Assembly: GCA_016699105.1 (NCBI GenBank)
Contig: CP064960.1
Location: 456,727-520,726 of the forward strand
Length of the DNA stretch: 64,000 bases
From: a bacterium
GTDB lineage: Bacteria; Patescibacteriota; Saccharimonadia; UBA4664
Reading direction: 5' to 3'
The notes under the pieces are model-generated. The model was given only the letters and a program-made list of their open reading frames with translations, did no database searches and was not told the origin of the DNA. Of this stretch, positions 4,384 through 57,668 are shown piece after piece; position 1 is the stretch's first letter; each line of letters starts with the position of its first letter. A program made the position numbers and the translations under genes.

Positions 4384-5748
4384 TCATGATGCCCGATGAG
4401 GCTATTACTGAGGTTGAACTCAGCCAGGCTAAAACACCGCCAGTTTCCAAGCGATATTCTGTGCAAAAGCGATTTGGTCGGTTTTTGCGTATCTTGGGTC
4501 CGGGAGTCGTGACTGGTGCCGCCGATGATGATCCATCCGGCATTGCCACATACTCACAAGCAGGGGCGATGTTTGGGCTGAGTATGGCTTGGGTGATGCC
4601 GTTTACATACCCACTCATGACGGCAGTACAAGAAGCGTGTGCTCGCATTGGTGCAGTCACCGGTAAAGGCCTGGCGGCCGTGGTACGCACGCATTACCCG
4701 AAACCAGTACTTTATAGTGTTGTGGGATTGGTGGTGTTTGCCAATACGCTTAACATCGGGGCTGATATTGGAGCTATGGCCGCGAGCGCCCAGCTGCTTT
4801 GGCCACAGCTGCCCTTTGCAACTGCGAGCAATTGTATTTGCAGTGTTAATGCTCGCTCTGGAGATTTGGATTCCATATAAAACGTACGTGAAAATGCTGA
4901 AATGGCTGGCATTAACATTATTTTCATACGTTATAACGGCGTTTATCGTGCATGTACCGTGGGCTGAAGTCTGGCATGCTACTTGGGTTCCGCATATTTC
5001 ATGGTCGCCGGCGTATTTATATGCACTCGTTGGTATTTTGGGCACCACCATATCTCCGTATTTGTTTTTCTGGCAGACGAGTGAGGTCGTTGAAGACGAG
5101 ATTGCAGCTCATCGCTTAGCGCAACGAGGCGGTGTACCCCGTTTGAGCCGTCGGTATCTCATGAATTTACGGATCGATAATGCATTCGGCATGCTGTTTA
5201 GCAATGTGGTGGCTTGGTTTATTATTATCGTCGGTGCAGTTGTGCTTCACGCCAATGGTGTCACTGAAGTGGCTTCGGCCGCCGATGCCGCCCGGGCGTT
5301 GGAGCCACTAGTAAATGGTTGGCCAAACGCCGGCTACTGGGCCAAAGTAATTTTTGCCGTCGGTATTATTGGCATTGGCTTGTTGAGCGTACCGGTATTG
5401 GCTGGTGCTTCGTCATATGCCATCGCCGAGACTTTTGGCTGGAAAGAGGGTCTCTACCGGCCGTTGAAAAAAGCGCGTGGATTTTATGCTGTAATCGCTG
5501 TGGGCACTTTGGCCGGGTTGGCATTTAATTTCCTCGGTATTGATACCATGCAGGCGTTAGTATTTGCGGCGGTGTTTAATGGCGTGGCTGCGGTACCGCT
5601 CGTACTCCTGATATTACTTATATCGATGCGCTCGGATATCATGGGTGAACACCGGAGCGGGTGGTGGTCTCGGCTGGGATTATTGGCCACATTTATATTG
5701 ATGCTTGGGGCAGCTGTAGCCATGTTGCTGTCTTTTTTGCCTATATAA
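4362..5748 (+). CDS. mntH: Nramp family divalent metal (Mn2+/Fe2+) transporter; one frameshift near 4812-4817
   Basis: GPGVVTGAADDDPSGIATYSQAGA Nramp signature and multi-TM profile. ORFs 4362..4880 and 4639..5748 are consecutive parts of one transporter, split at ccc/ttt (4812-4817). Exact start is ambiguous (4362-4382). Confidence 0.75.
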
Positions 5749-24718: not shown

Positions 24719-25951
24719 ATGCATGAATTACCAACCAGTGTGAGCGAGCGTTTTGATGCTCAAGTTGTACAGAAAGCCTTAGCGTATATCGAAGGCTACT
24801 GGGACACTCTCCAACGACACCAGACGACCGACAAGGGTACCATCATAGGCCTGCCTCATCCATACCTGGTGCCCAGTTCGGGTAATGGCAGTGGCTTTTC
24901 ATACCAAGAAATATATTATTGGGACAGCTATTTCATGGTACAGGGGTTATGGGGAACGGATCGTGAGTACATGGTCAAAGATATAACTGATAATTTGTTG
25001 TATTTAATGCAACGATTTGGCGTAATTCCGAACTCAGGACGCATGTATCACACCGGTCGGAGTCAGCCGCCGTTTTTAACGACCCTTATCAGGCAAGTAT
25101 TTGACGTAACGGGTGATTTGGAGTGGTTAGAGCAATCAGCGGCCATAGCTCAGCTGGAGTATGAAACAGTCTGGATGGGTACCGAGCATCCTCACTGGCG
25201 TCAAGTTTTCGAAGGATTGTCGCGATATTACGATGTGGACGTACTCAATGATTTGGCGGAAGCCGAGAGTGGCTGGGATATGACGACACGCTTTGATCGG
25301 CGGGCGCTCAGTTTCCTGCCGGTTGATTTGAACGCCCTACTTTATAAGTACGAAACTGACTTAAGTGAGATAGTCGGGATACTAGGTCGGGAATCGGATG
25401 CAGCAGTTTGGCAGGAACGAGCTGCTCAACGTCAAAAAGTGGCCGATAATTATTTGTGGGACAGCCACAAAGGTGGTTATTTTGATTTTGATTACAGTAG
25501 GCTGGAACTTGGCAGTGTCTGGTCACTAGCAACCTATTTTCCGATGTGGTCAGGTATGGCGAGTGAACGTCAAGCGGCTGATTTGGTGAAAAATTTACAA
25601 CGATTTGACTGTCCAGGTGGACTTTCTACAACAGCAAAAGAGCCTCAAATAGGTATGGTGGTGCCGACTCAATGGGCCTACCCGAATGGCTGGGCGCCGC
25701 TGGAAATGATCGTGATCGAAGGGCTGGAACGTTACGGTTATCAAGCTGAAGCACGATTATATGCTCGGAAATGGTTAGCGACAAACTTGAACTGGTTTAA
25801 TCACCGTGAAGAATTCCTCGAAAAATATAACGTGGCTGAACCAGAACTGCCACCGCTGCAAGGCTTGTATCCAAATCAGGTCGGATTTGGTTGGACTAAT
25901 GCTGTATTTGTGCGTTTTGCGGCCAAGTACCTCGACGACAATGAACGTTAA
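24719..25951 (+). CDS. Glycoside hydrolase family 37-like (trehalase-like)
   Basis: Motifs resembling trehalase signatures (YQEIYYWDSYF, QWAYPNGWAPLE); (alpha/alpha)6-barrel-like. Shorter than typical trehalases. Confidence 0.6.
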   Translation: MHELPTSVSERFDAQVVQKALAYIEGYWDTLQRHQTTDKGTIIGLPHPYLVPSSGNGSGFSYQEIYYWDSYFMVQGLWGTDREYMVKDITDNLLYLMQRFGVIPNSGRMYHTGRSQPPFLTTLIRQVFDVTGDLEWLEQSAAIAQLEYETVWMGTEHPHWRQVFEGLSRYYDVDVLNDLAEAESGWDMTTRFDRRALSFLPVDLNALLYKYETDLSEIVGILGRESDAAVWQERAAQRQKVADNYLWDSHKGGYFDFDYSRLELGSVWSLATYFPMWSGMASERQAADLVKNLQRFDCPGGLSTTAKEPQIGMVVPTQWAYPNGWAPLEMIVIEGLERYGYQAEARLYARKWLATNLNWFNHREEFLEKYNVAEPELPPLQGLYPNQVGFGWTNAVFVRFAAKYLDDNER

Positions 25952-26187: not shown

Positions 26188-27762
26188 CTAACCGACCTGA
26201 GTGTAAACTTCTTCGAGCGTCGTAACTTTGTTGAGTGCTTTGATGATACCGTCTTGCAAGATGGTAGTCATACCATCTTTGATGGCGGCTTGTTCGATGC
26301 TATTGGCGGTGGTAGCTAGGGTACTATTGGCAATGAGCTCAGCCATGGGTTGTGTGATGGCCATTTGTTCCATGATGCTCGTGCGGCCTTTATACCCAAA
26401 GTGGAAGCACTGATTACAACCAACAGGCTTGGCCAACTTGATGCCCTCAAGGGGAGGATAGAGATCGGTACTAACACCGTCTAATACGGTTTTAATTTGG
26501 GTGAGCTCGGCTTTGGACGGTTCATACTCGGCTTTGCAATTGTTGCAGAGCGTGCGCACGAGCCGTTGAGCCATGATGAGCTTGATGGAGCTGGCTAGGA
26601 GTGGGTTTTGACCAATCATGTCCATGAGACGGGAAATGGCAGCTGAAGCATTGGTGGCGTGAAAGGTGGACAATACAAGGTGTCCCGTCAAAGCAGCCTG
26701 GAGGGCAGTTTTGGCAGTATCGGCATCGCGGATTTCCCCAATCATAATGACGTTTGGGTCTTCGCGGAGGACGGCGCGCAGTTTTTCCATAAATAATTGT
26801 GAATCTGCTGAGCTGACCGGGATTTGGCTAATGCCTTCGAGTTCGTATTCGACGGGATCTTCGAGGGAAACGATTTTTACTTCGGCACTATTGAGGTGAT
26901 TCATAACAGAATAGAGCGTAGAGGTTTTACCGGAACCAGTCGGGCCGACACTCATGACGAGGCCACGGGGGTGGGCAGTTGCTTCCAGGAGTACATCTCG
27001 TTGCTTATCGGTGAGGTGTAGGTTCTCAATATTGAGATATTGCATACTCAAGTTGAAGAGCCGAATAACGACATCTTCGCCATGCAGCGACGGTATGGTT
27101 TCAATACGCATGTTAAGTGGTACTTCATCACCATCAGGATCGATGACACTAATACTCAAGCGGCCGCCTTGAGGCACATCGCCGCCCCATTTAACACCGG
27201 CGCGCATTTGGAGGTCTGATGCGAACAGATCATAGCGATCTTTGGGTAAGACAGTAATCGGGTGCAGTGTACCGTCGATTCTGAACCGGATGCGCGCTTC
27301 GGTTGCGCTTGGTTCAATATGTATGTCTGAGGCTCCTATCTGATAAGCAAGCTGGGCGACGGGCTCAAACATATATTTGGGTTCAATATTGAGAATGCGA
27401 TCGGTAAATTGGCTGAAATCACCGGCATCAATGGCTTGCTGGTCTTTGGCGGTCAAGAATCTGTTGAATAGCCGGTTCCAGCCAAATTGTGAGCTAAACA
27501 TGAAGACGACATCAAAGCCCGTAAGTCTTTGACGTAGCGATTCGAGCTGAGCTCGTTCGGTATCTTCACTGATGGCGAGAGTGAGCTGCTTACCGATGAC
27601 GCCAATTGGTATGACGCCATAGGCTTCCATGCCAGCTAGGGTTAACTTGCCGATAAGGGGTTTAATATCTAGTTTTGGGCGGGTATCGAAGTAGGGTAAC
27701 CCGATCTGGTCGGCAAAACTTTTGGCAGATAGTTCAACTTGGTCACGTTCGTCGGTTGTCAT
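26188..27762 (-). CDS. pilB: Type IV pilus / type II secretion assembly ATPase (PilB/GspE family)
   Basis: N-terminal T2SSE_N-like domain, Walker A VGPTGSGKTST, Asp/His boxes and a C-terminal CxxC...CxxC zinc motif. 524 aa. Confidence 0.85.
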   Translation of the reverse strand: MTTDERDQVELSAKSFADQIGLPYFDTRPKLDIKPLIGKLTLAGMEAYGVIPIGVIGKQLTLAISEDTERAQLESLRQRLTGFDVVFMFSSQFGWNRLFNRFLTAKDQQAIDAGDFSQFTDRILNIEPKYMFEPVAQLAYQIGASDIHIEPSATEARIRFRIDGTLHPITVLPKDRYDLFASDLQMRAGVKWGGDVPQGGRLSISVIDPDGDEVPLNMRIETIPSLHGEDVVIRLFNLSMQYLNIENLHLTDKQRDVLLEATAHPRGLVMSVGPTGSGKTSTLYSVMNHLNSAEVKIVSLEDPVEYELEGISQIPVSSADSQLFMEKLRAVLREDPNVIMIGEIRDADTAKTALQAALTGHLVLSTFHATNASAAISRLMDMIGQNPLLASSIKLIMAQRLVRTLCNNCKAEYEPSKAELTQIKTVLDGVSTDLYPPLEGIKLAKPVGCNQCFHFGYKGRTSIMEQMAITQPMAELIANSTLATTANSIEQAAIKDGMTTILQDGIIKALNKVTTLEEVYTQVG

Positions 27763-27828: not shown

Positions 27829-29150
27829 TCAGGGCGAGTCCGTAATAGAGGGGCTGAAATAAATGAACCCAGCGCCAACAGCTATGATGGCGATGGCAAA
27901 ACCAAGTCGATATCTGGGATTATGAAGTTTTGGCGTCAGAAAGTAGCTGCCCAACATGGTAACTATCAATATCGAATAGAGAAACGAAAAGAAATAGTGG
28001 TACAAAAACATGACACGAGGTACCCCAATGAAGGGTAAGAGGTTGAGGAGGTAGCCTAGGGTCAGAAATGTCAGTGGTTCGCTCACTTTGACGGGTAGCT
28101 TGTGGTTACTCAAAATGAGGTGAGCCAAAATAATAATGACGCTTATTACTACGCCCCACCAAATAATTGGATTACCGAGTAGATAGATGTGACCTTGACC
28201 GCCAACGTTGTTGGCTGTGCCTTGCCAGTAATAGATAGGTCGTTCGAGGAATGGCCAGGTGATCCAGCGAGAGCCATAAGGATGAGTAGCCGTCAGGTCT
28301 CGGTTGGCCCGATACATTGTAATGTTGAGCTCGGTAATTTTGGAGACAAAGCTCATATGAGTTGAGCGGTCATAGGCAGGATTGTCGATAAGTGTGCTTT
28401 GAAACTGCTGACTCATAAAAGCATCACCTTCACCACTGCTTGGTAGGAGGGCAAAGTGGAGCCAGAAGCTACTTACATATATAGTCACAGGAATGATCAC
28501 GAAAACTGCCAACTCTTTGAAAGCGTGGATGAGCCGTTGGTTGGTGCCGAGGCTTTGACGTTGGTCCCATAGCCAACAGAGTCCGATGACTGCAAGGGCC
28601 GTGAGCCCTGTCCACTTGATACTGCCGGCGATACCGGCGGAAGTAATAGCCGCTGTTAACCAGAACCAGCGACGCTTGCCGGTGAGGCCTCGGGCAACCA
28701 GATAACAGTACAGTGCACTTAGTCCGCTCAGCAGCAGTAATGAATCTGTCAAAATAAATCGTGATTCTACTAGTAAGGCGCCGTCGGCTAAAACCAGAAA
28801 AGCACCCAGAAAAGCAAAGGGTCGGCTGGCTCCCAAACGGTTGAGAATAAGCCAGATGAGCGGAACGAGCATCGCCCCTGCGAGCGCGGGTATAAGCCGT
28901 AACGGTAGAGCCGATGTCGTTAATAAGGCCGTGGCATCGAGTCCCCACAATTTAGCCCAGTACGCAAAAATGAGTTTCATGAGCGGGGATGGATATCAAA
29001 GAAATAATGACCGTCTAAGTAGTGGGCGGCGAAGGCTTTGAAATACACTTCATCAAAAACTGTTTCTCCGGGGCGAAATAGACCCCAAAAGCGAGTAATA
29101 ACGGCACCGACGATGAGGGCAGTAAATTCCGGAGCGAGGCGTCGTTTCAT
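27829..29150 (-). CDS. GT39/PMT_2 family (ArnT-like) membrane glycosyltransferase; frameshift near 28985-28988
   Basis: N-terminal segment (ORF 28977..29252 from MKRRL...FDEVYFKAFAAHYLDGHYFFDIHP) joins the 383 aa multi-TM ORF 27829..28980 (IHPPLMKLIF expected) across gggg. Confidence 0.7.
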
Positions 29151-34399: not shown

Positions 34400-35299
34400 T
34401 CAGGCCAAATTTGCGGATGATGGGTTTGAGTTTTGATGAGTTTTATGGAGTTGTTTCAGGGCGCGACGGCTATTTTGCTGCACGAACAGACTACTTTGTT
34501 TAATGGTATCGGTCGCAGCTGGTACGGCGATCTGTTTAACAGCTTCAGCAGCATTAGCCGGCGTTCCGACGGTAACTTCGGTTGGTTTGGAGTCAAGAAC
34601 TTGGCTGGCTGCTAGTTCGGGAGTGGTGATTTCAGTAATAATTGCTGCTACCCGGTCGGCCGCGAGCTTATCTATTAATTGACCTAACTCTGCAATCGCT
34701 GTAGTAGGTGAGTGGTGGCTGACTGTAGCGGTGAGCTTAGCAGCTGACACATGGTGGACGAGAGCGGGCGTGGCTAAGAGAATTCGGTCGCCCGTTTCGA
34801 GCTCGCCAGATGCTACTACGCCAAACGTTCTGGTAGGTGTGCTCGATCGCGGACTAGCGTCTGAGGTCATATTGGTTGGCTGATGGTGTCGATAAATAAT
34901 ACCTTCAGCTGATCCGGTATGTGTAATATGAATTTCATTTCCTACCACGATCGCTAAGATGGCGCTTATTTTACCGATCCAGGCAGCATTGCCTTTGTCG
35001 ACATAAGCAGCTAATTGGCGATTAGTTTCCTTGACTGCTTGTTCAAAGCGGGCTAGGGGAAATGGTTGGTTAGCTTGGTTGTAATAGTAGTTACCGAAGG
35101 TCTCGATGACTAGATCTATGAGATTTTCCGATTGACGGCCGGGAACAAGGACTTCGGCGACACAATATAGATTGCCCAGCTCGGCGGCTGGATTATCGGC
35201 TGTCGGTTCATGACTATAGGCTGTCACAAAACTACCACCATGACGTGGGCGTCGGCGGTACGGAGTAATTTTGGCGCTGTTGGTGATAAAATCTGTCAT
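34400..35299 (-). CDS. PP2C/SpoIIE-like domain protein (apparently degenerate metal site) with Ala/Thr-rich tail
   Basis: Weak but consistent PP2C-like blocks (ILAIVVGNEIHITHTGSAEGIIYRHH; GDRILLATPALVHHVS) without the canonical DGxGG/GDSR aspartates. Confidence 0.4.
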   Translation of the reverse strand: MTDFITNSAKITPYRRRPRHGGSFVTAYSHEPTADNPAAELGNLYCVAEVLVPGRQSENLIDLVIETFGNYYYNQANQPFPLARFEQAVKETNRQLAAYVDKGNAAWIGKISAILAIVVGNEIHITHTGSAEGIIYRHHQPTNMTSDASPRSSTPTRTFGVVASGELETGDRILLATPALVHHVSAAKLTATVSHHSPTTAIAELGQLIDKLAADRVAAIITEITTPELAASQVLDSKPTEVTVGTPANAAEAVKQIAVPAATDTIKQSSLFVQQNSRRALKQLHKTHQNSNPSSANLA

Positions 35300-35366
35300 C
35301 TTAACTCTTCAACGATTTGACCTTATGCTTAGTATAACCCATTTGCTGTTGTACACTGTAGGCTAT

Positions 35367-38281
35367 ATGGCTAGTTCCGATATCCTCACAGGGCTCAATG
35401 CCCAACAACTTCAAGCAGTCAGTCATATTGATGGCCCCATGCTGGTGGTGGCAGGCGCTGGCACTGGAAAGACCCAGGTAATTACCAGAAGGATCGCTCG
35501 TTTAATAGCTGATGATGCCGCCAAGCCGTCTCAAATCTTGGCTCTGACCTTCACTGAGCGGGCGGCTCGGGAAATGCAGGAGCGGTTATATGACCTGATC
35601 GGGTGGCAATCGTTTCAAGTAGCCGTTATGACTTTCCACGCCTTTGGCGCAGAGCTGTTAGCACGATATGGATCGCACATTGGTCGTTCAACTCGAGGGG
35701 GTTTACTTAACGATAATCAAAAATCGTTGTTATTAAGTCAACATTTTTCGAGTATTTCACTTGAATACTATAAGCCCGGCCAAGCTATGATGGAGTTTAT
35801 CCAAGATGTTGTAGCCTATATTGGTCTCCTACAGAATGCTGGTATAACCAGTGAAACGTATTCAAAATACACAAGTATGCTCGATGCCGATCAACCACAA
35901 CTACATCCATTTGACCGGGCAGAGCAGCGTGATCTAGCAAAAATTTACTCACTCTACGAGCACATCAAAACGAAAACGGGTACATTTGATTACCATGACC
36001 AAATGGAATTACCGCTCAAAATCTTAAGCGCCAAACCAAATCTGGTAACGCGATTGCGAAACGAGTATCGACACGTACTCGTTGATGAATATCAAGACAC
36101 CAATGCCACTCAGGATTTATTACTGAGGCAGTTAGTGGGTGAGCAGGGTAATATATTTGCGGTTGGCGATGATGACCAGGCTATCTATGGGTTTAGAGGT
36201 GCTGACATATACAATATTTTAGACTTTACCAACCATTTTAGACTGAATCAGGCTGTAGCCCTGGTTCAAAACTATCGCTCCGGGCAATCAATTTTAGATA
36301 TTGCCTATCGATTGATTTGCTACAACAATCCTGAGCGCCTGGAAGCAAAGTTAGGCATTGATAAGCAATTGAAATCGCAAAAGCAGGCGGCAACTGTGAT
36401 GTATAACATGTATTCAACTGTCACTGATGAACATCAGGGTGTTGTTGACGATATTAAGCAGCGACTAGATAGGGGTGAGTTGCCGCAAAGCATGGCAGTG
36501 CTTGCGACAAAGCATACGACCCTGGCAGCTGTCGCCAAACTACTGCGAGTTCGGGGCGTATCGTACAATTTGGCAGAGTCTGTGAGTATATTTGAGCAAC
36601 CTGAACTCCTGACTTTGTGGTACTTATTACAATGGATATCGGGTGATGCTGATGAGGTAGCCATTAGCCATGTCTTAATAGGGAAGTACCTGAATTGGCC
36701 TGCAGATCAGTATGAACAAGTAGCTTCATTGGCTCGCGATCAATCTCTTGGTCTGGAAGAAGCGCTAGAACAGATTGATACTGATTGGTCGAAAAAAATA
36801 CGCAGTCAACTGCGTCAATGGCGACAATGGTCAAGTGAGTTGCCTATAAGCCAACTCGTTTACCGGCTGGTATTTGAGACAACAACGGCTGATACGTGGC
36901 GACAACAGTCGCACGAGAGTCCTCGTATGGTGAGAGTATTTGAGGACTTGCAAAGGTGGCTGGAACATATGCAAGACTTTGAGACTGTCAGTGATGACGG
37001 ATCACTGCGCCGGTATTTAGCATTTTATGCGACACCACCAAAACTTGAAGCTACGGAACCAGTGGGCGATGCCGACGGAGTATCGTTGTTAACTGTTCAT
37101 GCGTCGAAAGGTCTCGAATTTGAGACTGTTTTCTCATTGATTGCAGCCATTCTAGTTGGACTGGCAAATCGGTGCGCGGATGGGAGATACCACCGACACT
37201 CATTAATAAGCGAGCTTTGGCTCCCGAGCATGAATATCGACGGCTCATGTATGTGGCCATAACTCGTGCTAAACAAAATCTTGTTGTGAGTTTTGCAACA
37301 AAAACTCGTAATGGTTCGCGAAAAATGCCGACCCCTATGCTGGCCGAAGCTTTTGGTGATCAGCAGCCAACTCAACTTGCGAGTGATGTGCAGTCTGACA
37401 AAGTGAGTCAATTAATGACGAAACTACAACGTTTTTATCCCCTGCAAGCTAGTGCGACGCCGCAGCGATTGCCATATGAACGGGCTGATGGTTGGCTGGA
37501 ATTGAGTGTGACTGCTCTCGCCCAATACGATTATTGTCCCTTTGAATTTTACCTGCAGGAAGGATTGCGGCTCGTTCAGCCGATTGGTCCTCAGCTGCAA
37601 TTTGGTAATTTGTTGCATAAAGTCTTCGAATTATATTATCGAGCTAAACAGGCCGGCGAGTCTGCGACTACTCAAAACTGGCATCAATTTATCGATGAGC
37701 AGTGGTCAGATCGCGGGTATGAGCAAGCAAATCTAGCGGAAGCCGACAGGCTGTTGGCGCATCAGACATTTGACGCTTACGTAAAACGGGAAACATCTAC
37801 TAGCCGCCGGCCGATGGGTTTTGAAGTGCCTGTACGATTTGAAATGCCGGAAGCAAAATTGCGGATGCGTGGCAAAATTGATGCTATCTTCCAAGTTGAT
37901 GACGGTTTGAGTTTGCGTGATTATAAGACAGGGCGATCGGTGACGACTGCTGATAAGTTAGCGATGAAAGCCAAAAACAATTTTCAATTACGTACCTATG
38001 CTCTGATTGCAGCTCGGACCGGTATGGGGGAAGTGGTTGAAATAGTTCTCGATCATGTCGTTGTTGGGGTGGAAGGCATCGCCAACTTGAGCCCAAAAAT
38101 AATGGCAAATCATCATGATAAATTGCTAAAAATGGCTAAAAATATTCGTGATCGTCAATTTGCTCCTGCTTCCGAGGGTGGGCATGTTTGCCAAGCGGTG
38201 CGGTATTATGGAACTGGTGAACGCGACGAATTAGCCGAAGAATTGATGAGAGAATTGGTAGATGCAGATGAAAGCTCGTGA
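35367..38281 (+). CDS. UvrD/PcrA-like SF1 helicase fused to a C-terminal PD-(D/E)XK (RecB/Cas4-like) nuclease; frameshift near 37150-37175
   Basis: Helicase motifs I (AGAGTGKTQV), II (VDEYQD), VI (VHASKGLEFE ... YVAITRAK). The second frame continues into a nuclease domain (YDYCPFEFYL; GKIDAIFQVDDGLSLRDYKTG). Confidence 0.75.
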
Positions 38282-45650: not shown

Positions 45651-47968
45651 ATGAAAGTTACTACCAATTGGTTACGAAATTGCCTAGGTCGTACAATATT
45701 ATCAGACGTATCTGACCAGCAAATCGTTCAGGCACTTGAACAGTCTGGACTTGAGGTTGAACAAGTAATTTATTCACATGAAATTGATCCACTTGTAATT
45801 TCTTGTTCGGTTAAAAAAGTTATTCAACATCCCAGTGCGGACAAACTAAAAATAGTGGAGTTATCCACTGGTAAAATCGATTTGACTGTGGTATGTGGCG
45901 CGCCAAACGTCCGCGAAGGTATGAATGCAGCCTTAGCTCAGGTCGGTGCGACATTGCCGTCGGGCGACAAAATAGGTATAGCCAAGTTGCGGGGGATAGA
46001 AAGTAGTGGGATGTTATGTAGTCCGCAGGAGCTTGGTCTTGGTGATGATCACAGTGGTTTATTGGTACTCGATGATTCAATACAACCTGGCGTGGAACTT
46101 GCAGATTTATATCCGTCAGATACCATAATTGATGTTAAGACACCTGCGAACCGCTTTGACGTCCAAAGTATTTGTGGCATTGCTCGAGATATAGCGGCAA
46201 TGTTACGCAAATCAGTTGATCTGGAAATGGACTTGATTCGTGATTTTGTACAAAATACTGCCGTGATTGACCGAACTGACGGTAATAGGCCGTTACTATT
46301 GGTTAAATTGAATATAAATCCAGAAAGCCAAACTCCAGATTGGATGGTTGCTCGGTTGCGATCGGTCGGCCAGCGAAGTAAAGGGTTGTTGGTAGATATT
46401 ACAAATTACGTTATGTTTGAAACTGGACAGCCGTTACACGCTTACGACGCAGCCAAAGTTAGTTGGCCATTGCAAGTGAGAACGGCTAATGATGGCGAGA
46501 AATTAGTCACACTTGATGGTGTCGAGCGAAAACTAACAACTGATGATTTAGTTATCGCCGATCAAGATGGACCTGTGGCATTAGCTGGCGTCATGGGGGG
46601 GCAATCGAGCGAAGTCGGAGCAACGACTCATACTATATGGCTTGAAGCCGGTGTATTTGATGCCGTCAAAATTCGAAAGACGGCTCAGCGACATGGTTTG
46701 CGTACCGAAGGCAGCGCTCGGTTTGAACGACGGTTACCGCCGCAGATGCCTCAAGTGGGTCTAACCCGGGTAATCGAACTTTTCAAAACATTGGCTGGGG
46801 CTTCGGTCGAGGCAATGGTTTGGGGAGGGATGACCAGTTACCAAAACCGATCCAGATCACGATTGAGCCTGATTGGGTACAGCGTATGCTTGGCCTGAAA
46901 CTTACTATGGCCGACATGAAGATGACTTTACGAAATTTGGGATTTGGCATTGAAGAAGTTGGTGACCTGATTAACGTTACCGTGCCTTGGTGGCGGCCAG
47001 ACATTAATGGTCGCGAAGATATACTAGAAGAATTAGTCAGAGTACTGGGGTATGGAAAGATACCAGCGACTTTGCCAACTTGGCGGCCGCAACAGGTGAA
47101 TTTCGATCACCTGCGGCAATGGCGAGAACGAGTTTGCCAGACATTAAGTGCAGCCGGATTGTTTGAAGTGATGACATATTCATTTGTAGCCGGTGAACAA
47201 ATTGATCGACTTGAATCGACCTATAAACACCTGGAGCTACAAAACCCATTGTCGGCAGAACAATCGTATTTGCGTACCGGATTATTGGCTAGTCATCTGC
47301 GGGTAGCTGAACGTAATCGAACGTATGCAAAATCCTTCGCCTATTACGAGATATCCAAAGTATTTTGGCCAAGTCGGCCCGGCGAACTGCCACATGAACC
47401 GTTATTGCTTGGACTAACTGCTGTGCGTCCGCACGATGCCTATATATATGTGAAAGGATTGCTGGATGAACTATCAGTAGTGCTGGGGGTGCCAATGACC
47501 GTACGTCCAGCTCAAGTCGCAAATATGGCTACAGGCCGCGCTGGCGAAGTAGTGCTCCATGACGTAGTTATTGGGCATATTGGCCAAGTCAAGCCATCTA
47601 TTGTGAAATCTCACAAGATCGAGCGGGAATTGGCAGGTTTTGAGATAAATTTACAGCCAGTTTTTGCATCGGTACGTCCGCAGCAGTATGTGGCGCCAGC
47701 GCGTTTTCCAACCATTCAACGCGATATTTCGGTTTGGCTTCCAGAAGGAACAACTTGGTCTAAAGTTGTAGAGACGTTGACAAAATATAATGTCGAATAT
47801 GTCGGAGAATATCGCGGACTAGGCACGCCTGCGGGGCAGCGTGGGCTAACGTTGCGACTGACGATGGCACATGACGATCATACCCCGACCGAAGCTGAAG
47901 CTAGTGCAGCCGTTACGCAGGTAACTGATCTACTGGGACGGATGTTGAGTGCGATATCTCGGGGCTAA
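45651..47968 (+). CDS. pheT: Phenylalanyl-tRNA synthetase beta subunit; frameshift near 46823-46826
   Basis: tRNA-binding domain, B3/4 and B5 (PKPIQITIEPDWVQRMLG) domains and C-terminal FDX-ACB domain. ORFs 45651..46898 and 46820..47968 join across gggg. Confidence 0.85.
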
Positions 47969-48035: not shown

Positions 48036-49469
48036 ATGTTAAAGCGCAGGCTGGATCAGGAAATCCACGGGAGCGCGGGTTATACTTCAGCCCGGCGGCT
48101 CGTGGCGTTGGGTATTTTGCTGGTTATGGCGCTCGTAGGCAGCCACCTGGCTCTAAGGGTTTGGTATGACGGCCGTATCCTTCCAGGCGTGAAAGTAGCT
48201 GGAATTGATTTTGGTGGTAAAACCATAAGTCAAACTCGATCGGCATTAGCTGATGCTGCTAGGGATTACCGTTTACAGTTGACGGTTGGACAGTCTAGTT
48301 ATGAATTGGCGGCAGCTGATGTCGGCGTGACTTTTGATGTCGAGAGTACGGTGGCGTCGGCATATAATAGCGGGCGCGATAAAGCTTGGTCGACGTGGCA
48401 TCATGAACCGGTAGCCATGGCTTACCAACTTGATCGAAAGGTATTACGGACATTTGCGGAAACGGCCGCCCGAAAGGTAGGGACGGCGCCGGTTGATGCA
48501 GCTATTGTTATGAAAAATGGCGTACCCGTGAAAGTGCCCGAAAAAAGTGGTTGGTCAATCGATAAAGTGGGGTTGGTACGGCTGATAGAACAAGATATAC
48601 AGCAGCCAGGAGGCGTGAATTTAGCCTTACAACCCCGCGAGCAAGTAGCCCAAGTGTTAGCGGCTCGTCTCGATCCAGCAGTGAATCAGGCCCAAGAATT
48701 GGTGCGAACACCGGTTGTCATAAAATTTGCCGATAAGACTTTCGTGCCATCGGTGACTGATATTGGTAGTTGGCTGACATTTGTGAAAGCCAGCGAGACA
48801 GCTGGAACCAGTTTGGTACCGACAGTAGATGAATCTAAAGTAAAAAATTATGTATTGGCGGTGGCTAACCAACTCGATATCGCGCCGATAAACAAAAAAA
48901 TTACGATTGAAAATGGGGTCAGTCGAGTTGATCAGGAAGGCGTCGATGGCATGGCCATAAATCAGGACGAAGCCGTAACCGCTATTATGACGGGATTGAC
49001 GGCGGGTCAATCGGTGGCGGTGCAGCTAACGACCCGACCAGTGGCTTTTAAAACGATTTCGACCAATCTCATAACGCTTGATTATCCGCGGTATATTGAA
49101 GTAAATATTAGTAAACAACGGCTGTGGGTGTGGCAAGACAAAGCTGTTATTTATGAAACTCCCGTGACTACTGGTGCGACTGGCGCTGGATTTGGAACGG
49201 CGCAAGGATTGTTTAGTGTCTATTACAAAACGACTAATACCCGTTTGCGCGGGTATCAGTACGGCTACGATTATGACGTAGCGGTTAAGTACTGGATGCC
49301 GTTTTATCAGGGTTATGGGCTACATGACGCGAGCTGGCGCAATGGAAAGTTTGGGGGCTCTGATTATTATTACGGGGGTTCACATGGTTGCGTTAATCTG
49401 CCTGACGCCGCTGCGGAATTTGTATATAACTGGGCGACTGTCGGCACGCCAGTTTGGGTCCATAAATAA
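48036..49469 (+). CDS. L,D-transpeptidase (YkuD domain) with N-terminal TM and long extracytoplasmic region
   Basis: C-terminal YkuD catalytic core (YIEVNISKQRLWVW...GLHD...SHGCVNLP) with the His/Cys dyad. Confidence 0.7.
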   Translation: MLKRRLDQEIHGSAGYTSARRLVALGILLVMALVGSHLALRVWYDGRILPGVKVAGIDFGGKTISQTRSALADAARDYRLQLTVGQSSYELAAADVGVTFDVESTVASAYNSGRDKAWSTWHHEPVAMAYQLDRKVLRTFAETAARKVGTAPVDAAIVMKNGVPVKVPEKSGWSIDKVGLVRLIEQDIQQPGGVNLALQPREQVAQVLAARLDPAVNQAQELVRTPVVIKFADKTFVPSVTDIGSWLTFVKASETAGTSLVPTVDESKVKNYVLAVANQLDIAPINKKITIENGVSRVDQEGVDGMAINQDEAVTAIMTGLTAGQSVAVQLTTRPVAFKTISTNLITLDYPRYIEVNISKQRLWVWQDKAVIYETPVTTGATGAGFGTAQGLFSVYYKTTNTRLRGYQYGYDYDVAVKYWMPFYQGYGLHDASWRNGKFGGSDYYYGGSHGCVNLPDAAAEFVYNWATVGTPVWVHK

Positions 49470-49508
49470 GCTTAAGCTCGACAGGCTAACATGGTATAAT
49501 GCCTGGTA

Positions 49509-49964
49509 ATGGATGCCCAATCGACCGTACCACCAGGAGCCTCGAGTAACCCGAATGAGAATCGGCCAGAAATGGCTGCCCCAGTGTCGGCTGGTGAGCA
49601 AGTAGTTCAACCGGCTCCCGTTTCAGCAGAACAAGCGCCGTCAGTGAGCGGTGGTTCTAGTGCGCCCCAATCGGTTGCGCCAGCGGTAGATCCGATGGCC
49701 TTAGTGATGGCTACAGCCGCAGATCCAGCGACGACGGCTCCGACAACCCAAGCGACAACACTATTGCCGAATCTGGCGGCGGACGTTGATGTGATTGAGC
49801 CTGAATGGGTGGACAAGGCCCAAGAAGCCATAGCAAAGCACGTTGGTGATCCTTATGGCGAAGAAGAAGCAGTAGAAGAGCTCCAAGAGGCCTATCTGCA
49901 ACAGCGCTATGGTCTGAACGTTCATGAACCAGGGGAAGACACAACTAATACCGACAGTGCTTAA
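49509..49964 (+). CDS. Hypothetical acidic low-complexity (Pro/Ala/Ser-rich) protein
   Basis: 151 aa ORF immediately upstream of the VirB4-like ATPase; no motif. Confidence 0.3.
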   Translation: MDAQSTVPPGASSNPNENRPEMAAPVSAGEQVVQPAPVSAEQAPSVSGGSSAPQSVAPAVDPMALVMATAADPATTAPTTQATTLLPNLAADVDVIEPEWVDKAQEAIAKHVGDPYGEEEAVEELQEAYLQQRYGLNVHEPGEDTTNTDSA

Positions 49965-49988
49965 AGGTTACTAGGTGAGGCTGCTGAG

Positions 49989-52323
49989 GTGACATTCGTC
50001 TTAACAATTCTGGGTGTATTTTTGCTCGTTGGATCTGGTTTAGGTCTGTCGGCATATTACATTTACCGTCATAAGCTGCGAAAATCAAAGGCCATCGAAC
50101 GAGGCTTGAAGATGGTGCCTATTTTAATCCATCTGCCGCCAGCGACGAATCAAGGCGCTTCCAATCGTGATGCCAAAGAAGTAATGCGCGAAAAGACAGC
50201 TCAAGCAGAGGTGCTATATAACTTGCTGGCTGGTACCGCAGTTACGGGATTTCGGAGTACGTTTTATGGTCAACGACATGTAGCCATGGAGTTGATCGCC
50301 ATTGATGGGGTAGTGCATTTCTACGCTGCCGTGCCCGTGGCCATGGCGAGCACTATGGAGCAAGCACTACAGACTGCTTATCCAGGGGCGCGGATGGAAA
50401 TGGTTGAGGATCATAATATCTTCAATCGAGAAGGACGGCTGGCAGCTACTATGGGTGGCGAGATGGTGCTTCGGACTGAAAGTGCTTATCCTATTGCTAC
50501 ATATTCAAAACTAGATCGCGACCCGATGGAAGCCCTATTGACGAGCATTTCAGCTTTGGACAAGCAAGATGGAGTAGCTTTCCAACTCATGTTGCGGCCA
50601 GCAGCGTCAAACTGGATTTCGCGCAGTTTGCGGGTAGCGGACATGAAACGGCGTGGCCGGGGAGCTCATAATGATCTGTCGGTTACAAATTTGGCCCAAG
50701 CGGCTCTAAAAGCACCTTCAGCACGGGCTGAGGAAGACAAGCAGTATCACGGTGGACAGACGGCTAGTCAAATCGAGCAAGATACAGCTAATACCATCGA
50801 GGAGAAGACGAAACATCCTGGTTTCGAAGTTTTAATTCGCGTAATTGTATCAACCGGATCGGTTGCCCGTAGTCAACAACTTTTGCGAGATATTGCGACT
50901 ACTTTTGCGCTGTACGACTCTCCGGGACATAATGGGTTTACTTTTTTGCCAGCAGTTGATGTCCAAGGGCTTGTGACTGCCTTTATCTTTCGTTTTTTTC
51001 CGCCTGAGTTGAAAGGAAGTGTGCTCAATAGTGTTGAACTGGCAACGCTATTTCATCTACCCGATTCACAATATTTGCCCGCAGCTAGTATTGAGCGCCA
51101 GAAGAGTAAGCAAGTTGATGGACCGGTCAAATTGCCATCAGTGGGGTTGTTGTTTGGCTACAACGAATTTCGGGGGGTGCGCAAGGAGATTCGGTTATCA
51201 GCCGAAGATCGTCGGCGACATACCTATATACTGGGTCAGACTGGTGTTGGTAAATCGACCATGTTGGAAAACTTGGCCGTTCAAGACATGTTGGCTGGCA
51301 ATGGTTTTGCATTTATCGACCCTCACGGTGACTCAGCTGAGAAATTATTGGCTTTGGTGCCCAAAGAACGAGCCGAAGATGTCATTTACTTCGATCCAGG
51401 TGATAGCCAATATCCATTAGGACTAAACTTGTTCGAATTTAGTGACCCAGCCCAAAAAGACTTTTTGGTGCAAGAGACCATTAATATGCTGTACAAGCTG
51501 TACGACCCCGGTAAAACGGGTATTATTGGACCTCGCTATGAACACTGGTATCGCAATGCCGCACTGACTTTGATGAGTGATCCTAATGGATCGACCTTTA
51601 TCGAGATTCCGAAAGTATTTACCGACACAGAATATTTGAAAGAAAAGTTCAAGTATCTGAAAGACCCGACGGTCATCGACTTTTGGACCAAGGAGATGGG
51701 GCAAACAAGCGATTACCACAAGAGCGAGATGCTCGGCTGGTTTGTGAGTAAATTTGGCGCATTCCAAAACAACGAAATGATGCGCAATATCATTGGGCAG
51801 ACCAAGAGTTCATTTAATATCCGCGAGGTCATGGATCAAAAGAAGATCTTGATCGTCAACCTGAGTAAAGGCCGGGTAGGGGAGTTGAACTCACAATTGC
51901 TCGGTATGATCTTTGTCATCAAGTTCCAGGCGGCAGCGATGAGTCGGGCAAATATGCCCGAAGATCAACGGTCTGATTTTTGCTTATATGTCGATGAGTT
52001 TCGAATTTTTCAACCGATAGTTTTTCTGGCATCTGGTGAAGCTCGTAAATACCGCTTGAACTTAATCGTAGCCAACCAGTTTATTGGGCAATTAAGCCAG
52101 AAATCCGTGACGCTGTCTTTGGGAACATTAGGTCAATTGTGGCTCACCGCATGGGTCCGGAAGATGCTGAATTTATGGTCAACAATTTGCGCCGGTATTT
52201 GATACAGCCGACTTGATGAACTTACCGAACTACAACGCCGCGATGCGATTAATGATTAGCGGTTTGCCAAGCCAACCGTTTACAATGGTAGATAGTCCCC
52301 CCCATCGGCAAGCCAAATGCTGA
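49989..52323 (+). CDS. VirB4/TraC/TcpF-like conjugation/T4SS-type P-loop ATPase (AAA_10-like) with N-terminal TM; about 3 frameshifts in the last 250 nt
   Basis: N-terminal TM helix, ~400 aa N-domain, then Walker A ILGQTGVGKST, IDPHGD and Walker B CLYVDEF (AAA_10/TraG-like pattern). The 3' end reads ...EIRDAVFGN...PEDAEFMVNNLRPVFDTADLMNLPNYNAAMRLMISGLPSQPF only by shifting frames near 52105, 52185 and ccccccc at 52295-52301. Confidence 0.55.
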
Positions 52324-52350
52324 GCTCAGGGGCTGCGGTTAAGCAACTAA

Positions 52351-55300
52351 GTGCCGCAAAGTACGGGCATGACAGAGCAGTTGTCGAAGCCGACATCCGC
52401 TAGCCGTTTGACATCGACTCGGCCGGGAGTAACGCCTCCTGTACCGCCTACACCTCCCGCGCCGCCATTCCCGCCAACGCAGCTGAGATTGCTCAGCCTC
52501 AGCCAGTTCAATCAGTGCCCGCACCCGCACCGGTGGTTCAGGCTTCGCGGCAGCAACAGGAGCACCTCCCGACCCAAAGTATTGGGGCGGCACCGACCGA
52601 CCCGATGACGCTGGTTATGAAACGCATACCACCTACGGCAGTAGTAACTAACGAGCAACCATGGACGACTCGACAGCCTCAAGTGTACCCGGCCAGCGGC
52701 TGTGGCTGCTCTGGAAGCTGCTCAGCGCGGATACAATCCGGATCGGCAATAGCGATGCCTGCAGCTGACCCAGCCGTGGTTACGCAGCCAATGCGTCAAC
52801 CACAACCTTTGCCACAACAACTCCACAGCCTGCATATTCTTTGTCAGTCATCAGCATTGGCTAACGAACCAATACAGTCGGTAGCTACGGCAGTACCAGC
52901 TGCTTTACCAATTGCATCGATGCAGACGCGATCGGTGTGCCTTGGTGGCGGCGGCTGCCGGGGAGGTGCCGGTATGGCGCGCCCGGCTCCACCGATAGGT
53001 GCACCCCGGTCAATTTAGATCCTAGTTTTGACGGATGGCGCCGCCGCACTCGAGCCTCTGCCGCCTGAGCCACTTTTAGCTGAATCAGTGGCGGCGGTTC
53101 CGCCTCCAGTTGTCTCGGCAGATACATTATCAATTCGAGATATTGTCGGTAGTCCGGGAATGACGTGGCTATTTTGGAGCCAGGCGTAATGCCGCCAGGT
53201 GGGGTACCAGTTGTGAGCCAGTAGCGCCAGAACCGGTCGATCAGGTGGTGCAGTCAGATGTAATCTGAATATGGTTGGCAGTGGGAACCGTTCAGGTGAC
53301 CCATATGCCGAGATAGATGTATTAGGATCAGCTCCGTCGCCCGACCATGGCACCTTTGCCGAACCAGCGCCAAATGTCGCTATTTTGCCGCCACAGGAGG
53401 AATTACTGGAACCGGCAGTTCAGAGCCCCATGGTGTCAGTGCCAGAACAAGTATCGGCAGTACCTCAAGTGATTGAACCTGAGGAAATGGTACCAGTTGC
53501 GGTCAGTGTCCGGCACCGATGCCAGTGGAACCGATGCCAGCGGCTTCAGTGTCAATGGCGCCAATGTCTGTAGCACCAATGCCAACCCCTCAAGAAACTG
53601 ATACTGAATACATTCATTTCGTGGATCCAGCGGCCGAGCAAGTCTTGGCGCGTAATGAAATACCGGCACCTATTATTGAAGCCGCGCCTGAGACGATTAC
53701 CTGGCAAGCAGCTACAGTTATAACTGAGCCAGACTCGGTTGTGGCAGTACCCCCATCGATGCCGGAGCCAATGCCAGTTGCTCCGATTATTACTCAACCG
53801 GCACCATTACCAGAACCTGTTCCGATCGCAGCTATGGTACCAGCTCCGGCTCCAGTAATAACTGAGCCTATTCAAAACGTACCGGCACCAATGCCCATGG
53901 CACCGGCGCCGTTGCCGGTGGTGCCAACCCCGGTTGTCGCACCATTACCCACACCCGCTTCGGTACCTGTACCAACTCCAACTTCAGTACCTGTACCGAC
54001 GCCAATGCCAGTACCTGTACCAACGCCAGTTCCGGTAGCGCCAGTTACATCGATACCTGTGATACCGGCTCCAGCACCTGCTCCGGTGGCGCCGCCGATT
54101 GCCCAACCGTCTCCAGTATTGCCACCGGTGCCTGCTCCCGTCTTAAGTCCGCAACCAACACTTCCACCACCGCCATCCCCCGTGGTGACGGCACCAGCAC
54201 CTGTAGTACCGTCGACGCAACCAGAGCTAATTCAGCAAGTGCCAGTTCAGCCAGTACCACAGCCGGTCGTCCAACCCCCGGCGTTACCCCCAATACCAGC
54301 TGTTGTTCAAAATATTGCGGTGCCGAAAAACCTGGAATCGGTTGCCCAAATGTTGACAGAGTCAGCTACCGAGATGACTCAGACGCCCAAGCCAGCTCCA
54401 GTGACTCAAAAACTGCCAGAAAAACCCAAAGAGGTACCGAAAGCTGTTCCTGTGCCCGTATCTCAGCCAACGCCTGTACCGGTAGAGCTCCCACCAGAAA
54501 AACCGATGTTGCCGCCTGTGCCAATTCCATTCCACAAAGATCTGGAAGGTGATGTAGTGGCAGCCATGCCGGCATTGGCGCCGTCACAAGCTACCGTGGC
54601 TGACGAACGGACGGCGCAAAACCAGCTGGCCGATGCCCAGCATGAGATTGACGATTTATTGACCGAATCGCTCATCCGGCTCGAAGGTCGGCGGGAACGA
54701 CTTGAACCAACGGCAGTACCAGCGATCGTGGATGCACCGGTTGCCAAGAAAGTTCCGGCAAAAGCTGTTGTCACCTCGGCACCAGCGTCGGACCCGGTAG
54801 CTGAGCGCGAGCACAAATCATTGGTTATTGCTCCGGTGCATGCGGATTTGGATAAAATGGGTCCAAAAATCGATCCCCAAGTAGTCGCTCAAGTTATGCA
54901 GGGCGACCAACCAAAGTCTCAGTCCGCGCCGGTAGTTGAAAAAGTTCAGCAGGCAGTGGTTGAAACGCCTAATCATGCAGTAGTACCGCCACCGGTAGTC
55001 GAACCGAAATTACCGGACTTGCCGCCAGTACCTGTGATTACTAAACACGCCCGTGGTTTATTGCCGGCGCAGCCACCCGCGGTAAATGACGAACCAGAGT
55101 CGGAGTTGCCAACAAGTGAGTCGTTAGCTGCTGATGATGTGGCTAAGGCGCGAGCTGAACGCGAAGTTAAAGCCAAATTGCCCCAGGTATCGACGGATGT
55201 ACCAAAACCGGTCGAAAAGCCGCGCGAATATATCAAAGAACCTGAGCCAAAAGAACAACCCAAACCGCCGGAAAAAGTACAGCATCCAGTATTTCGGAGT

Positions 55301-55543
55301 CGGACTCAAGCGCGAAAGGTAGAACCTGCCAAAGGCGAAAAGGTGGCTTCGACTGATGAAGCTCAACACAATACGCCTTCGGAAACAGCACAGGATTTTG
55401 GCCCGTTGACGGGTAAAGTCATTATGCCAACAGGCGAAAAACCGATCACGGTGTCGCTATCTCAGCCAGCGTCTAAACCAGCTAAGCTGGCACCAGGTGA
55501 AGTGTTTGTCGATGAAAAAGGTAATGTTAGTGTCGGTGAATAG
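52351..55543 (+). CDS. Very large Pro/Val/Ala-rich low-complexity protein (~1000 aa), open across three frames (frameshifts near 52470-52520, 53020-53270, 53520-53570)
   Basis: Same-strand ORFs 52351.., 52515..53018, 53271..53573 and 53519..55543 all encode PxP/PVP-rich sequence (PVPTPTSVPVPTPMPVPVPTP...). The C-terminal 250 aa is Lys/Glu-rich, ending ...GEVFVDEKGNVSVGE. Antisense ORFs in this region are composition artefacts. Confidence 0.5.
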
Positions 55544-55583
55544 TCCGGCGGTTTATGGGTGTTGCTTCCAGATAGCGATATAA

Positions 55584-57668
<2,085 letters not shown>

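Follow-up and report, generated by a model that had tools for sequence, protein, structure and literature searches.

Motors of the type IV coupling protein (T4CP) and VirB4 types belong, together with FtsK and HerA, to the FtsK-HerA superfamily of ring ATPases. T4CPs typically carry two transmembrane helices, and the C-terminal tail of TraD from the F plasmid binds TraM, while that of Legionella DotL binds adaptor proteins; in FtsK, a membrane anchor is accompanied by a long Pro/Gln-rich linker. Much of bacterial diversity falls within the Patescibacteria, whose cultured representatives live attached to other bacteria. Here we analyse a gene for a protein of this superfamily in a 64,000-nucleotide stretch of a Saccharimonadia genome (lineage UBA4664; contig CP064960.1 of assembly GCA_016699105.1, positions 456,727 to 520,726), which is referred to below as the window and whose own positions are used throughout. 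The gene lies at 49989..55543 on the + strand. Its product, which we are highly confident consists of an N-terminal helix, a DUF8128 domain, a P-loop motor and a disordered tail, is on balance best explained as an orphan T4CP-like membrane ATPase with a recruiting tail.

A survey of 3,035 patescibacterial genomes reported 5,713 VirD4-like T4CP homologues in 2,918 of them (Quinonero-Coronel et al. 2025, PMC12102498). These VirD4-like ATPases, roughly two to a genome and rarely near virB4, are orphans that appear akin to the window protein; they include SEML1_0293, a paralogue described below. In Southlakia epibionticum ML1, the cluster of a type IV secretion system (T4SS), SEML1_0006-0019, near dnaA, is essential and was described by the authors as being without recognisable coupling and relaxase proteins (Wang 2023, PMC10633639). 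A canonical VirB4, SEML1_0008, lies inside this cluster (PMC10633639), and ML1 also has an FtsK of canonical make-up, SEML1_0096, which is essential and comprises alpha, motor and gamma domains. The genes SEML1_0141 and SEML1_0142, the latter about 115 kb past the end of the T4SS cluster, are the apparent positional counterparts of the small acidic gene and of the window gene that it precedes, respectively, as judged by synteny, gene sizes and domain layout. The order in ML1, which matches that of locus L002 in our comparison, is SEML1_0141, SEML1_0142, then a minus-strand 193-residue gene and DUF11 gene, gyrB, gyrA and a PAP2-like gene. SEML1_0141 is a hypothetical protein of 139 residues, and SEML1_0142 is a 'TraM recognition domain-containing protein' of 1,019 residues with a P-loop domain at 381-800 (Wang 2023, PMC10633639). 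SEML1_0142 has the same position as the window gene, has its P-loop domain in the corresponding part of the protein and is likewise uncharacterised, whereas the window protein is longer (about 1,850 residues) and has a tail of about 1,050 residues instead of about 200.

SEML1_0142 is a core gene of a Patescibacteria-enriched family (Wang 2023, PMC10633639, Tables S1/S2). In transposon sequencing (Tn-seq) it was scored ES/ES/ES, with 114 insertions in the input and 11, 11 and 9 recovered, and SEML1_0141 was scored GD/ES/ES, with 0/9 insertions recovered (Wang 2023, PMC10633639, Table S1). In contrast to this apparently essential counterpart of the window gene, SEML1_0293, the second T4CP-like gene of ML1, is dispensable (NE/NE/NE; Wang 2023, PMC10633639). 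In the literature searched, the essential pair SEML1_0141/0142 is not discussed, the published discussion covering a dispensable paralogue only, and neither the essentiality of the pair nor the union of a VirB4-like N domain with a T4CP-like motor is stated. The family is one that has been catalogued (as Pfam DUF8128 and as 'TraM recognition domain-containing protein') and hit in a Tn-seq screen while staying uncharacterised, and the window protein is a new member of it with an extreme tail.

The window gene opens with a GTG codon at 49989, behind a Shine-Dalgarno-like GGTGAGG, and its frame is intact to about 52003. The Pro-rich coding sequence stops at 55543, and gyrB starts 55 nucleotides further, at 55599. 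A minimum-frameshift path joins the two ends into one protein of 1,851 residues. The frame changes, approximately 14-18 in number (at least 14) and mostly at homopolymers, all fall within 52003..53520 (+), a frameshift-dense stretch in which the motor ends and the tail runs through its first third; the list of open reading frames (ORFs) has none in 49989-52000 or 53519-55543. In the motor region, the shifts lie at homopolymers near 52003, 52035, 52095, 52180, 52297, 52330 and 52398. When all three frames are read, the ATPase sequence past LYVDEF hops frames at runs such as T5, C7 and G4, and the peptides follow each other in the order QNFSTDSF..., EARKYRLNLIVANQ, EIRDAVFGN...MGPEDAEF, FDTADLMNLPNYNAAMRLMISGLPSQPF, IGKPNAEL and AAVKQLSAAKYGHDRAVVEADIR. 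The intact relative P0121 (1,870 residues) is collinear with the window from 50046 to 55540, the window frames alternating and all three being used; its identity to the window protein is 93% in the N domain and reaches 94% when the first 655 aligned residues are taken, and both proteins end in LAPGEVFVDEKGNV(S/T)(V/L)GE. The other nearest intact relatives have 1,842 and 2,006 residues, and the C-terminal peptide LAPGEVFVDEKGNV is common to all of them. In addition, better-assembled homologues are single proteins of 900-1,400 residues with a P/A/V-rich tail behind the same ATPase, and single-ORF lengths among the homologues range overall from 900 to 2,006 residues. Based on these comparisons, 49989..55543 is almost certainly a single gene encoding about 1,850 residues, and a model with separate ATPase and Pro-rich genes is wrong. 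The initial annotation had ended the ATPase near 52323 and placed a separate Pro-rich gene behind it; the ATPase sequence instead runs on through the frameshifts into the Pro-rich part, which is its C-terminal tail. The same annotation had warned that frameshifts obscured the boundaries and that the two parts might be fused, and on both counts it was correct.

A layout of two genes, in which a VirB4-like ATPase and an exported Pro-rich envelope or adhesin protein would form a minimal secretion or adhesion module, is hardly credible in the light of this collinearity. The longest intact Pro-rich ORF, 53519..55543, does have an ATG start, and Pro-rich spacers occur in VirB10/TonB and surface proteins; however, this ATG lies inside P0121-collinear sequence, every intact homologue is one polypeptide, and the ORF, whose C-terminus reads ...VDEKGNVSVGE, has no signal peptide, transmembrane segment, LPXTG-type end or Pfam domain. 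The comparison with VirB10/TonB-like proteins and Gram-positive adhesins that had been drawn at first does not hold for a segment fused to an ATPase and predicted to be cytoplasmic.

The density of frame changes, 14-18 in 1.5 kb and far above that of the rest of the window, might also be taken to mean that the frameshifts are real and that the gene is a decaying pseudogene. This is very improbable. We read the frameshifts as errors of assembly or sequencing rather than gene decay, because the peptides between them keep 90-95% identity to P0121. Furthermore, the 2-kb flanks are intact, most of the examined shifts lie at homopolymers, the essential pheT gene is also split, and the family is near-universal, with an apparent counterpart that is essential in a relative. 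The indel rate of approximately 1% in 52003-53520 suggests that this stretch was left at raw-read accuracy; a possible cause would be a tail that varies between strains and was bridged by few reads. Long-read assemblies rich in frameshifts will mis-call the gene as two, an ATPase and, behind it, a 'proline-rich surface protein'. Elsewhere in the window, approximately one split gene is found per 8 kb. Single frameshifts split pheT into the overlapping ORFs 45651-46898 and 46820-47968, and a UvrD/PD-(D/E)XK helicase-nuclease (AddA-like) gene into 35271-37262 and 37172-38281; both splits are consistent with assembly-wide homopolymer errors.

The N-terminal part of the protein agrees with what had been noted from the sequence at the outset, since the start at 49989, the hydrophobic helix, an N domain of about 350 residues and the P-loop motor were all found. 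The putative membrane-anchor helix (residues ~1-26; 49989..50066, +) is the sole clear transmembrane-like segment of the protein in a hydropathy scan. In the AlphaFold2 (AF2) model it is part of a long helix at residues 2-40, and a basic stretch (YRHKLRKSKAIERGLK; YRHKLRKSK) stands behind it. By the positive-inside rule, everything past the helix, including the tail, would be cytoplasmic (C-in).

The helix is followed by the DUF8128 domain (PF26449; residues ~38-385; 50100..51143, +), for which a fold like that of the VirB4 N-terminal domain is predicted. The window protein receives this assignment via its best homologues, which are 59-78% identical to it and for which PF26449 is the precomputed Pfam assignment. 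With the window N domain as the query, 1,179 clusters at 50% identity were matched (E<=1e-3), and the full-length matches have DUF8128 in the N-terminal part of proteins of at least 800 residues. The AF2 model of the N domain (pLDDT 81.9, pTM 0.80) was compared with the PDB by Foldseek. The top 14 matches, which are those with E<=1e-3, are all TrwK/VirB4 chains of the R388 T4SS, with E values of 2e-6 to 1.6e-4 and TMq values of 0.41-0.46, and the next match has an E value of 8e-3 and a TM-score of 0.18. Neither TrwB nor HerA nor any other RecA-like ATPase is among the N-domain matches in the PDB; therefore, the likeness is most probably to the N-terminal domain that is specific to VirB4. The specificity of the matches and the length of the alignment suggest that the two N-terminal domains correspond to each other. 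Among distant DUF8128 proteins, P0233, P0245 and P0265 (~907-926 residues) have an extra ~150-190 residues before DUF8128.

The motor (residues ~386-806; 51144..52400, +) is a P-loop domain of T4CP type with an all-alpha insertion, its last ~400 nucleotides being read across seven frameshifts. Walker A (GQTGVGKST) lies at 51234-51260, IDPHGD at 51315-51332 and Walker B (LYVDEF) at 51984-52001, all on the + strand. Among 45 homologues, no variation is seen in Walker A, Walker B or DPHGD, and the EARK/VANQ motifs are likewise invariant in the family. Over 45 members, Pfam matches are to DUF87 (45), TrwB_AAD_bind (38), TraG-D_C (32) and T4SS-DNA_transf (18), with weak matches to FtsK_SpoIIIE (8) and AAA_10 (4, best E 5.6e-4) and none to CagE_TrbE_VirB. 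The window protein itself reaches 24.4 bits for DUF87 (cut-off 23.2) and 15.5 bits for TrwB_AAD_bind (cut-off 20.5), and Pfam gives it no match to AAA_10, CagE_TrbE_VirB, the FtsK_SpoIIIE motor or the FtsK alpha and gamma domains. Its close homologue P0003 scores 22.5 for T4SS-DNA_transf (cut-off 20.1) and 20.7 for TrwB_AAD_bind (cut-off 20.5). NCBIfam TraD models match the Walker A stretch alone, far under their cut-offs. In distant DUF8128 proteins of 810-860 residues, which have the same N domain (27-31% identity) and a clear T4CP motor, TrwB_AAD_bind and T4SS-DNA_transf match near end to end and above the cut-offs (1e-9 to 1e-13). The nearest solved relatives by sequence in the PDB are TrwB and DotL.

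For the homologue P0003, which is intact, a full-length AF2 model (pLDDT 82.4) was likewise searched by Foldseek. The best match is VirB4 (E 4e-16, ~900 columns, TM-score ~0.3), followed by TrwB (TMt ~0.6), Cagbeta and HerA; over the motor, TrwB and Cagbeta reach TMt values of 0.5-0.64, and FtsK is not among the top 50 fold matches. Judging by the sequence matches, we favour placing the motor with the VirD4/TrwB/TraD coupling proteins and not with VirB4, FtsK or HerA, and the protein is predicted, with good confidence, to be an active membrane ATPase. The earlier description of the ATPase as VirB4-like is thus borne out for the two-domain layout, in which the N domain matches TrwK/VirB4 only, and not for the AAA_10/VirB4 sequence pattern, the motor being of T4CP type. 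Membership in the T4SS ATPase superfamily and lineage specificity, both also proposed, are supported. The alternative foreseen then, that the best matches might be housekeeping ATPases of FtsK/HerA type and the Pro-rich part unconserved, has not come about, as the best matches are other proteins and the tail is kept in relatives.

The comparison with known systems can be extended to whole architectures. Like TrwB of R388, TraD of F and SXT, VirD4/Cagbeta and DotL, the window protein has a P-loop nucleotide-binding domain with the T4CP Walker A neighbourhood, D-P-x-G-D and an all-alpha insertion, as well as an N-terminal membrane anchor and a disordered C-terminal extension with a conserved end peptide. 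Unlike these T4CPs, it has one transmembrane helix and an extra ~350-residue DUF8128 domain between anchor and motor, and its gene is a chromosomal core gene with no relaxase or T4SS neighbours and an apparently essential counterpart. To our knowledge, the C-terminal tails of known T4CPs are all far shorter than the one seen here. With VirB4, TrwK and TraC, it shares an N-terminal alpha/beta domain and a C-terminal RecA-like ATPase; unlike in VirB4, a CagE_TrbE_VirB match is found in 0/45 members, and the protein carries a transmembrane helix of its own. HerA is similar in that its central-domain model (DUF87) is matched by all 45 members; in contrast to HerA, the N domain is VirB4-like, there is no sign of a HAS-barrel, and in the fold matches both VirB4 and TrwB come ahead of HerA. 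FtsK has its linker between anchor and motor, whereas the tail of the window protein stands past the motor; moreover, the window protein has neither the alpha and gamma domains nor the 4TM domain of FtsK, but a single transmembrane helix.

The tail comprises approximately 1,050 residues (~807-1851; 52401..55543, +), encoded by ~3.1 kb, and is predicted from its composition to be disordered. It is P/V/A/T-rich, with approximately 20% Pro (22% in the intact part), 12-16% Ala and 12-14% Val. Neither a transmembrane-like segment by hydropathy scan nor any Pfam or NCBIfam match was found in it; the charged, non-repetitive domain of ~250 residues that had been expected at its C-terminus does not appear to be a separate fold and consists of short conserved islands in low-complexity sequence. 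In the ten-tail alignment these islands, standing amid fast-evolving sequence, are PPPIGAPPV, TLSIRDITGG, YIHFVDPAAE, AEHQIDDLLSVSLIH, ESLAAD/DVAKARAERE, PLTGKLIMPT and the terminal KLAPGEVYVDEKGNVIIGE; GDPYA-x-ID-x-LG is common to the window protein, P0121, P0124 and L029. In the window, the conserved motifs are PPIGA (52989-53003), TLSIRDIV (53124-53147), GDPYAEIDVLG (53295-53327), YIHFVDPAAE (53609-53638), HEIDDLLTESLI (54641-54676), DVAKARAERE (55136-55165) and PLTGKVIMPTGE (55403-55438), and the C-terminal peptide is LAPGEVFVDEKGNVSVGE (55487..55540), with the family form [DE]-x-[IV]-[FY]-[IV]-D-x-[DE]-G-x-[LV], all on the + strand. Tandem Repeats Finder detected a 24-nucleotide tandem repeat at 53946..54028 (+; 3.5 copies, 81% matches) encoding PTPxSVPV units ('PVPTPTSVPVPTP'), and no other DNA-level repeat array over 49400-55700; the tail is therefore low-complexity and not repetitive. 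Tail length differs greatly within the family: distant members have no tail (805-830 residues in total), most Saccharimonadia proteins have 100-300 residues, and tails of more than 1,000 residues occur only in the clade of the window. Most of the other Saccharimonadia tails carry GSSFLD[ED]WLAKR ~60-90 residues past the motor (loci L006, L007, L009, L013, L023, L035, L047, L048 and L073), and this motif is absent from the long-tail clade of the window. The C-terminal pattern [IV]-[FY]-[IV]-D-x-[DE]-G-x-[LV] is present in the window's clade and in most of these tails, not in L047 or L048.

The small acidic, low-complexity protein reported ahead of the ATPase was confirmed at 49509..49964 (+). 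It has 151 residues, with 24 D+E and 4 K+R, and its N-terminal half is disordered and P/A/Q/S-rich. The C-terminal motif of ~55 residues, DVDVIE-x-EWVDKA...DPY..EE.VE.L...YL..RYG, is near-invariant when aligned with its syntenic counterparts in L001 and L002. More than 3,500 homologues of 120-165 residues were found, none of which has a name or a Pfam domain. The partner motif stands 160-315 nucleotides upstream of the ATPase in approximately 60 of 83 loci, tail-less members included, and gyrB-gyrA lie 2.5-8 kb downstream in approximately 60 of the 83, down to 42% identity, often with opposite-strand genes between. By this synteny, the comparison shows the small acidic protein and the ATPase to be a two-gene module conserved across Saccharimonadia. 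What had been proposed as a minimal T4SS is such a module amid housekeeping genes, with pheST upstream and gyrBA downstream; the initial annotation had rightly seen gyrB directly behind the ATPase and no adjoining T4SS genes. Among all loci, pheST and a YkuD L,D-transpeptidase stand upstream in a subset.

The T4CP-type signatures of the motor might also suggest a coupling protein left over from an integrated conjugative element. Such an origin is extremely unlikely, as the pheST-gyrBA position is fixed across the class, no T4SS gene, relaxase or integrase is found among the housekeeping neighbours or in the ten ORFs that are the largest elsewhere in the window, and the rise in local G+C (0.47-0.55, versus 0.44-0.51 in the window) is limited to the Pro-rich tail. 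No second copy of the ATPase is present in the window, and no NurA-like neighbour was seen at the examined loci.

Returning to the orphan T4CP-like membrane ATPase with a recruiting tail, a mode of action may be proposed. The protein would sit in the cytoplasmic membrane with everything past the helix in the cytoplasm and, by analogy with its relatives, may assemble into a hexameric ring in which ATP hydrolysis would drive the handover or push of a protein or nucleic-acid substrate at the membrane. The flexible tail may serve as a recruiting platform whose short motifs and end peptide dock partners, as the tails of TraD and DotL do. The likeliest client would be the patescibacterial T4SS, because that system is also essential and has been reported without a recognisable coupling protein in its cluster. 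Whether the window gene product in fact works with this T4SS as its coupling ATPase is a plausible idea that we put forward tentatively. In a bolder and rather improbable version, the DUF8128 ATPases would be a separate, undescribed branch of the VirB4/VirD4 superfamily in which a VirB4-type N domain is joined to a coupling-protein motor, and one paralogue would have become in Saccharibacteria an essential stand-alone membrane motor whose tail captures cytoplasmic clients by its short motifs for the essential, relaxase-less T4SS or another conduit. If this were true, the extended tail of ~1,000 residues could span a cell of 200-300 nm, and the DUF8128 motor would be the missing energiser of the host exchange on which these bacteria depend.

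Several results weigh against a recruiting T4CP-like motor that serves the T4SS. The orthology of SEML1_0142 is drawn from synteny, the sizes of the genes and where their domains lie, not from sequence; the window subfamily lies at or under the Pfam cut-offs for T4CP models; and the TM-scores to VirB4 are modest, at 0.41-0.46 for the N domain and ~0.3 over the full length. Tail-less members are still paired with the small partner protein, and the tail is therefore dispensable for that pairing. A gene of the window type never adjoins virB4. Among the surveyed T4CP homologues, only 148/5,713 are near virB4, and they occur in 2,918/3,035 genomes compared with 2,417/3,035 for VirB4 (PMC12102498). 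That T4CP homologues are commoner than VirB4 and rarely near its gene fits a T4SS-independent role.

Such a role would make the protein an exapted T4CP-like ATPase, perhaps a second membrane-bound translocase of nucleic acid or protein, with an essential function in chromosome handling, division or envelope biogenesis, its tail being an FtsK- or ZipA-like spacer or scaffold. We regard this as somewhat unlikely, although several observations speak for it. There is no linkage between the gene and the T4SS cluster, and exaptation is suggested in the survey itself, which calls the ML1 T4CP homologue non-essential (PMC12102498). The published ECOD assignment places the SEML1_0142 motor with the FtsK motor e2iutB2 (PMC10633639), in line with the weak FtsK_SpoIIIE matches of 8/45 members. 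In addition, SEML1_0142 is scored essential from the first time point, which also holds for gyrB, dnaG and rpoD; the T4SS genes are for the most part GD first and ES later. This split, however, also divides ordinary housekeeping genes. The conserved position near gyrB-gyrA also speaks for this role, but adjacency to gyrB is weak functional evidence given the opposite-strand genes that lie between in many loci. Saccharibacterial gene order may moreover be conserved in general. Against this role stands the complete essential FtsK of ML1, SEML1_0096, which also makes a simple FtsK replacement unlikely, and the top 50 fold matches hold VirB4, TrwB and Cagbeta and not FtsK. Being a core gene for an ATPase of this superfamily, unlinked to the T4SS cluster and with an apparently essential counterpart, the window gene is a concrete candidate for the missing T4SS coupling component; should it prove not to be one, it would illustrate how a conjugation-type motor can be drawn into housekeeping.

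Other features of the window were also recorded. A YkuD L,D-transpeptidase gene with PG_binding_4 domains lies at 48036-49469, where it is the immediate upstream neighbour of the small acidic gene, and its synteny with the two-gene module is seen only in L001, L055, L058, L059, L061, L063, L067, L068 and L076. The window has a G+C content of approximately 0.48, nearly all of its genes are on the + strand, and it looks like a long-read Saccharimonadia assembly; its proteins have their closest relatives in metagenome-assembled genomes of Saccharimonadia. A PilB-type T2SSE ATPase, of a type IV pilus or type II secretion system, is encoded at 26188-27762 (-), and an Nramp transporter at 4639-5748 (+). 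A PMT-family protein O-mannosyltransferase at 27829-28980 (-) and a trehalase-family glycoside hydrolase at 24719-25951 (+) are both somewhat unexpected in a reduced genome of the candidate phyla radiation.

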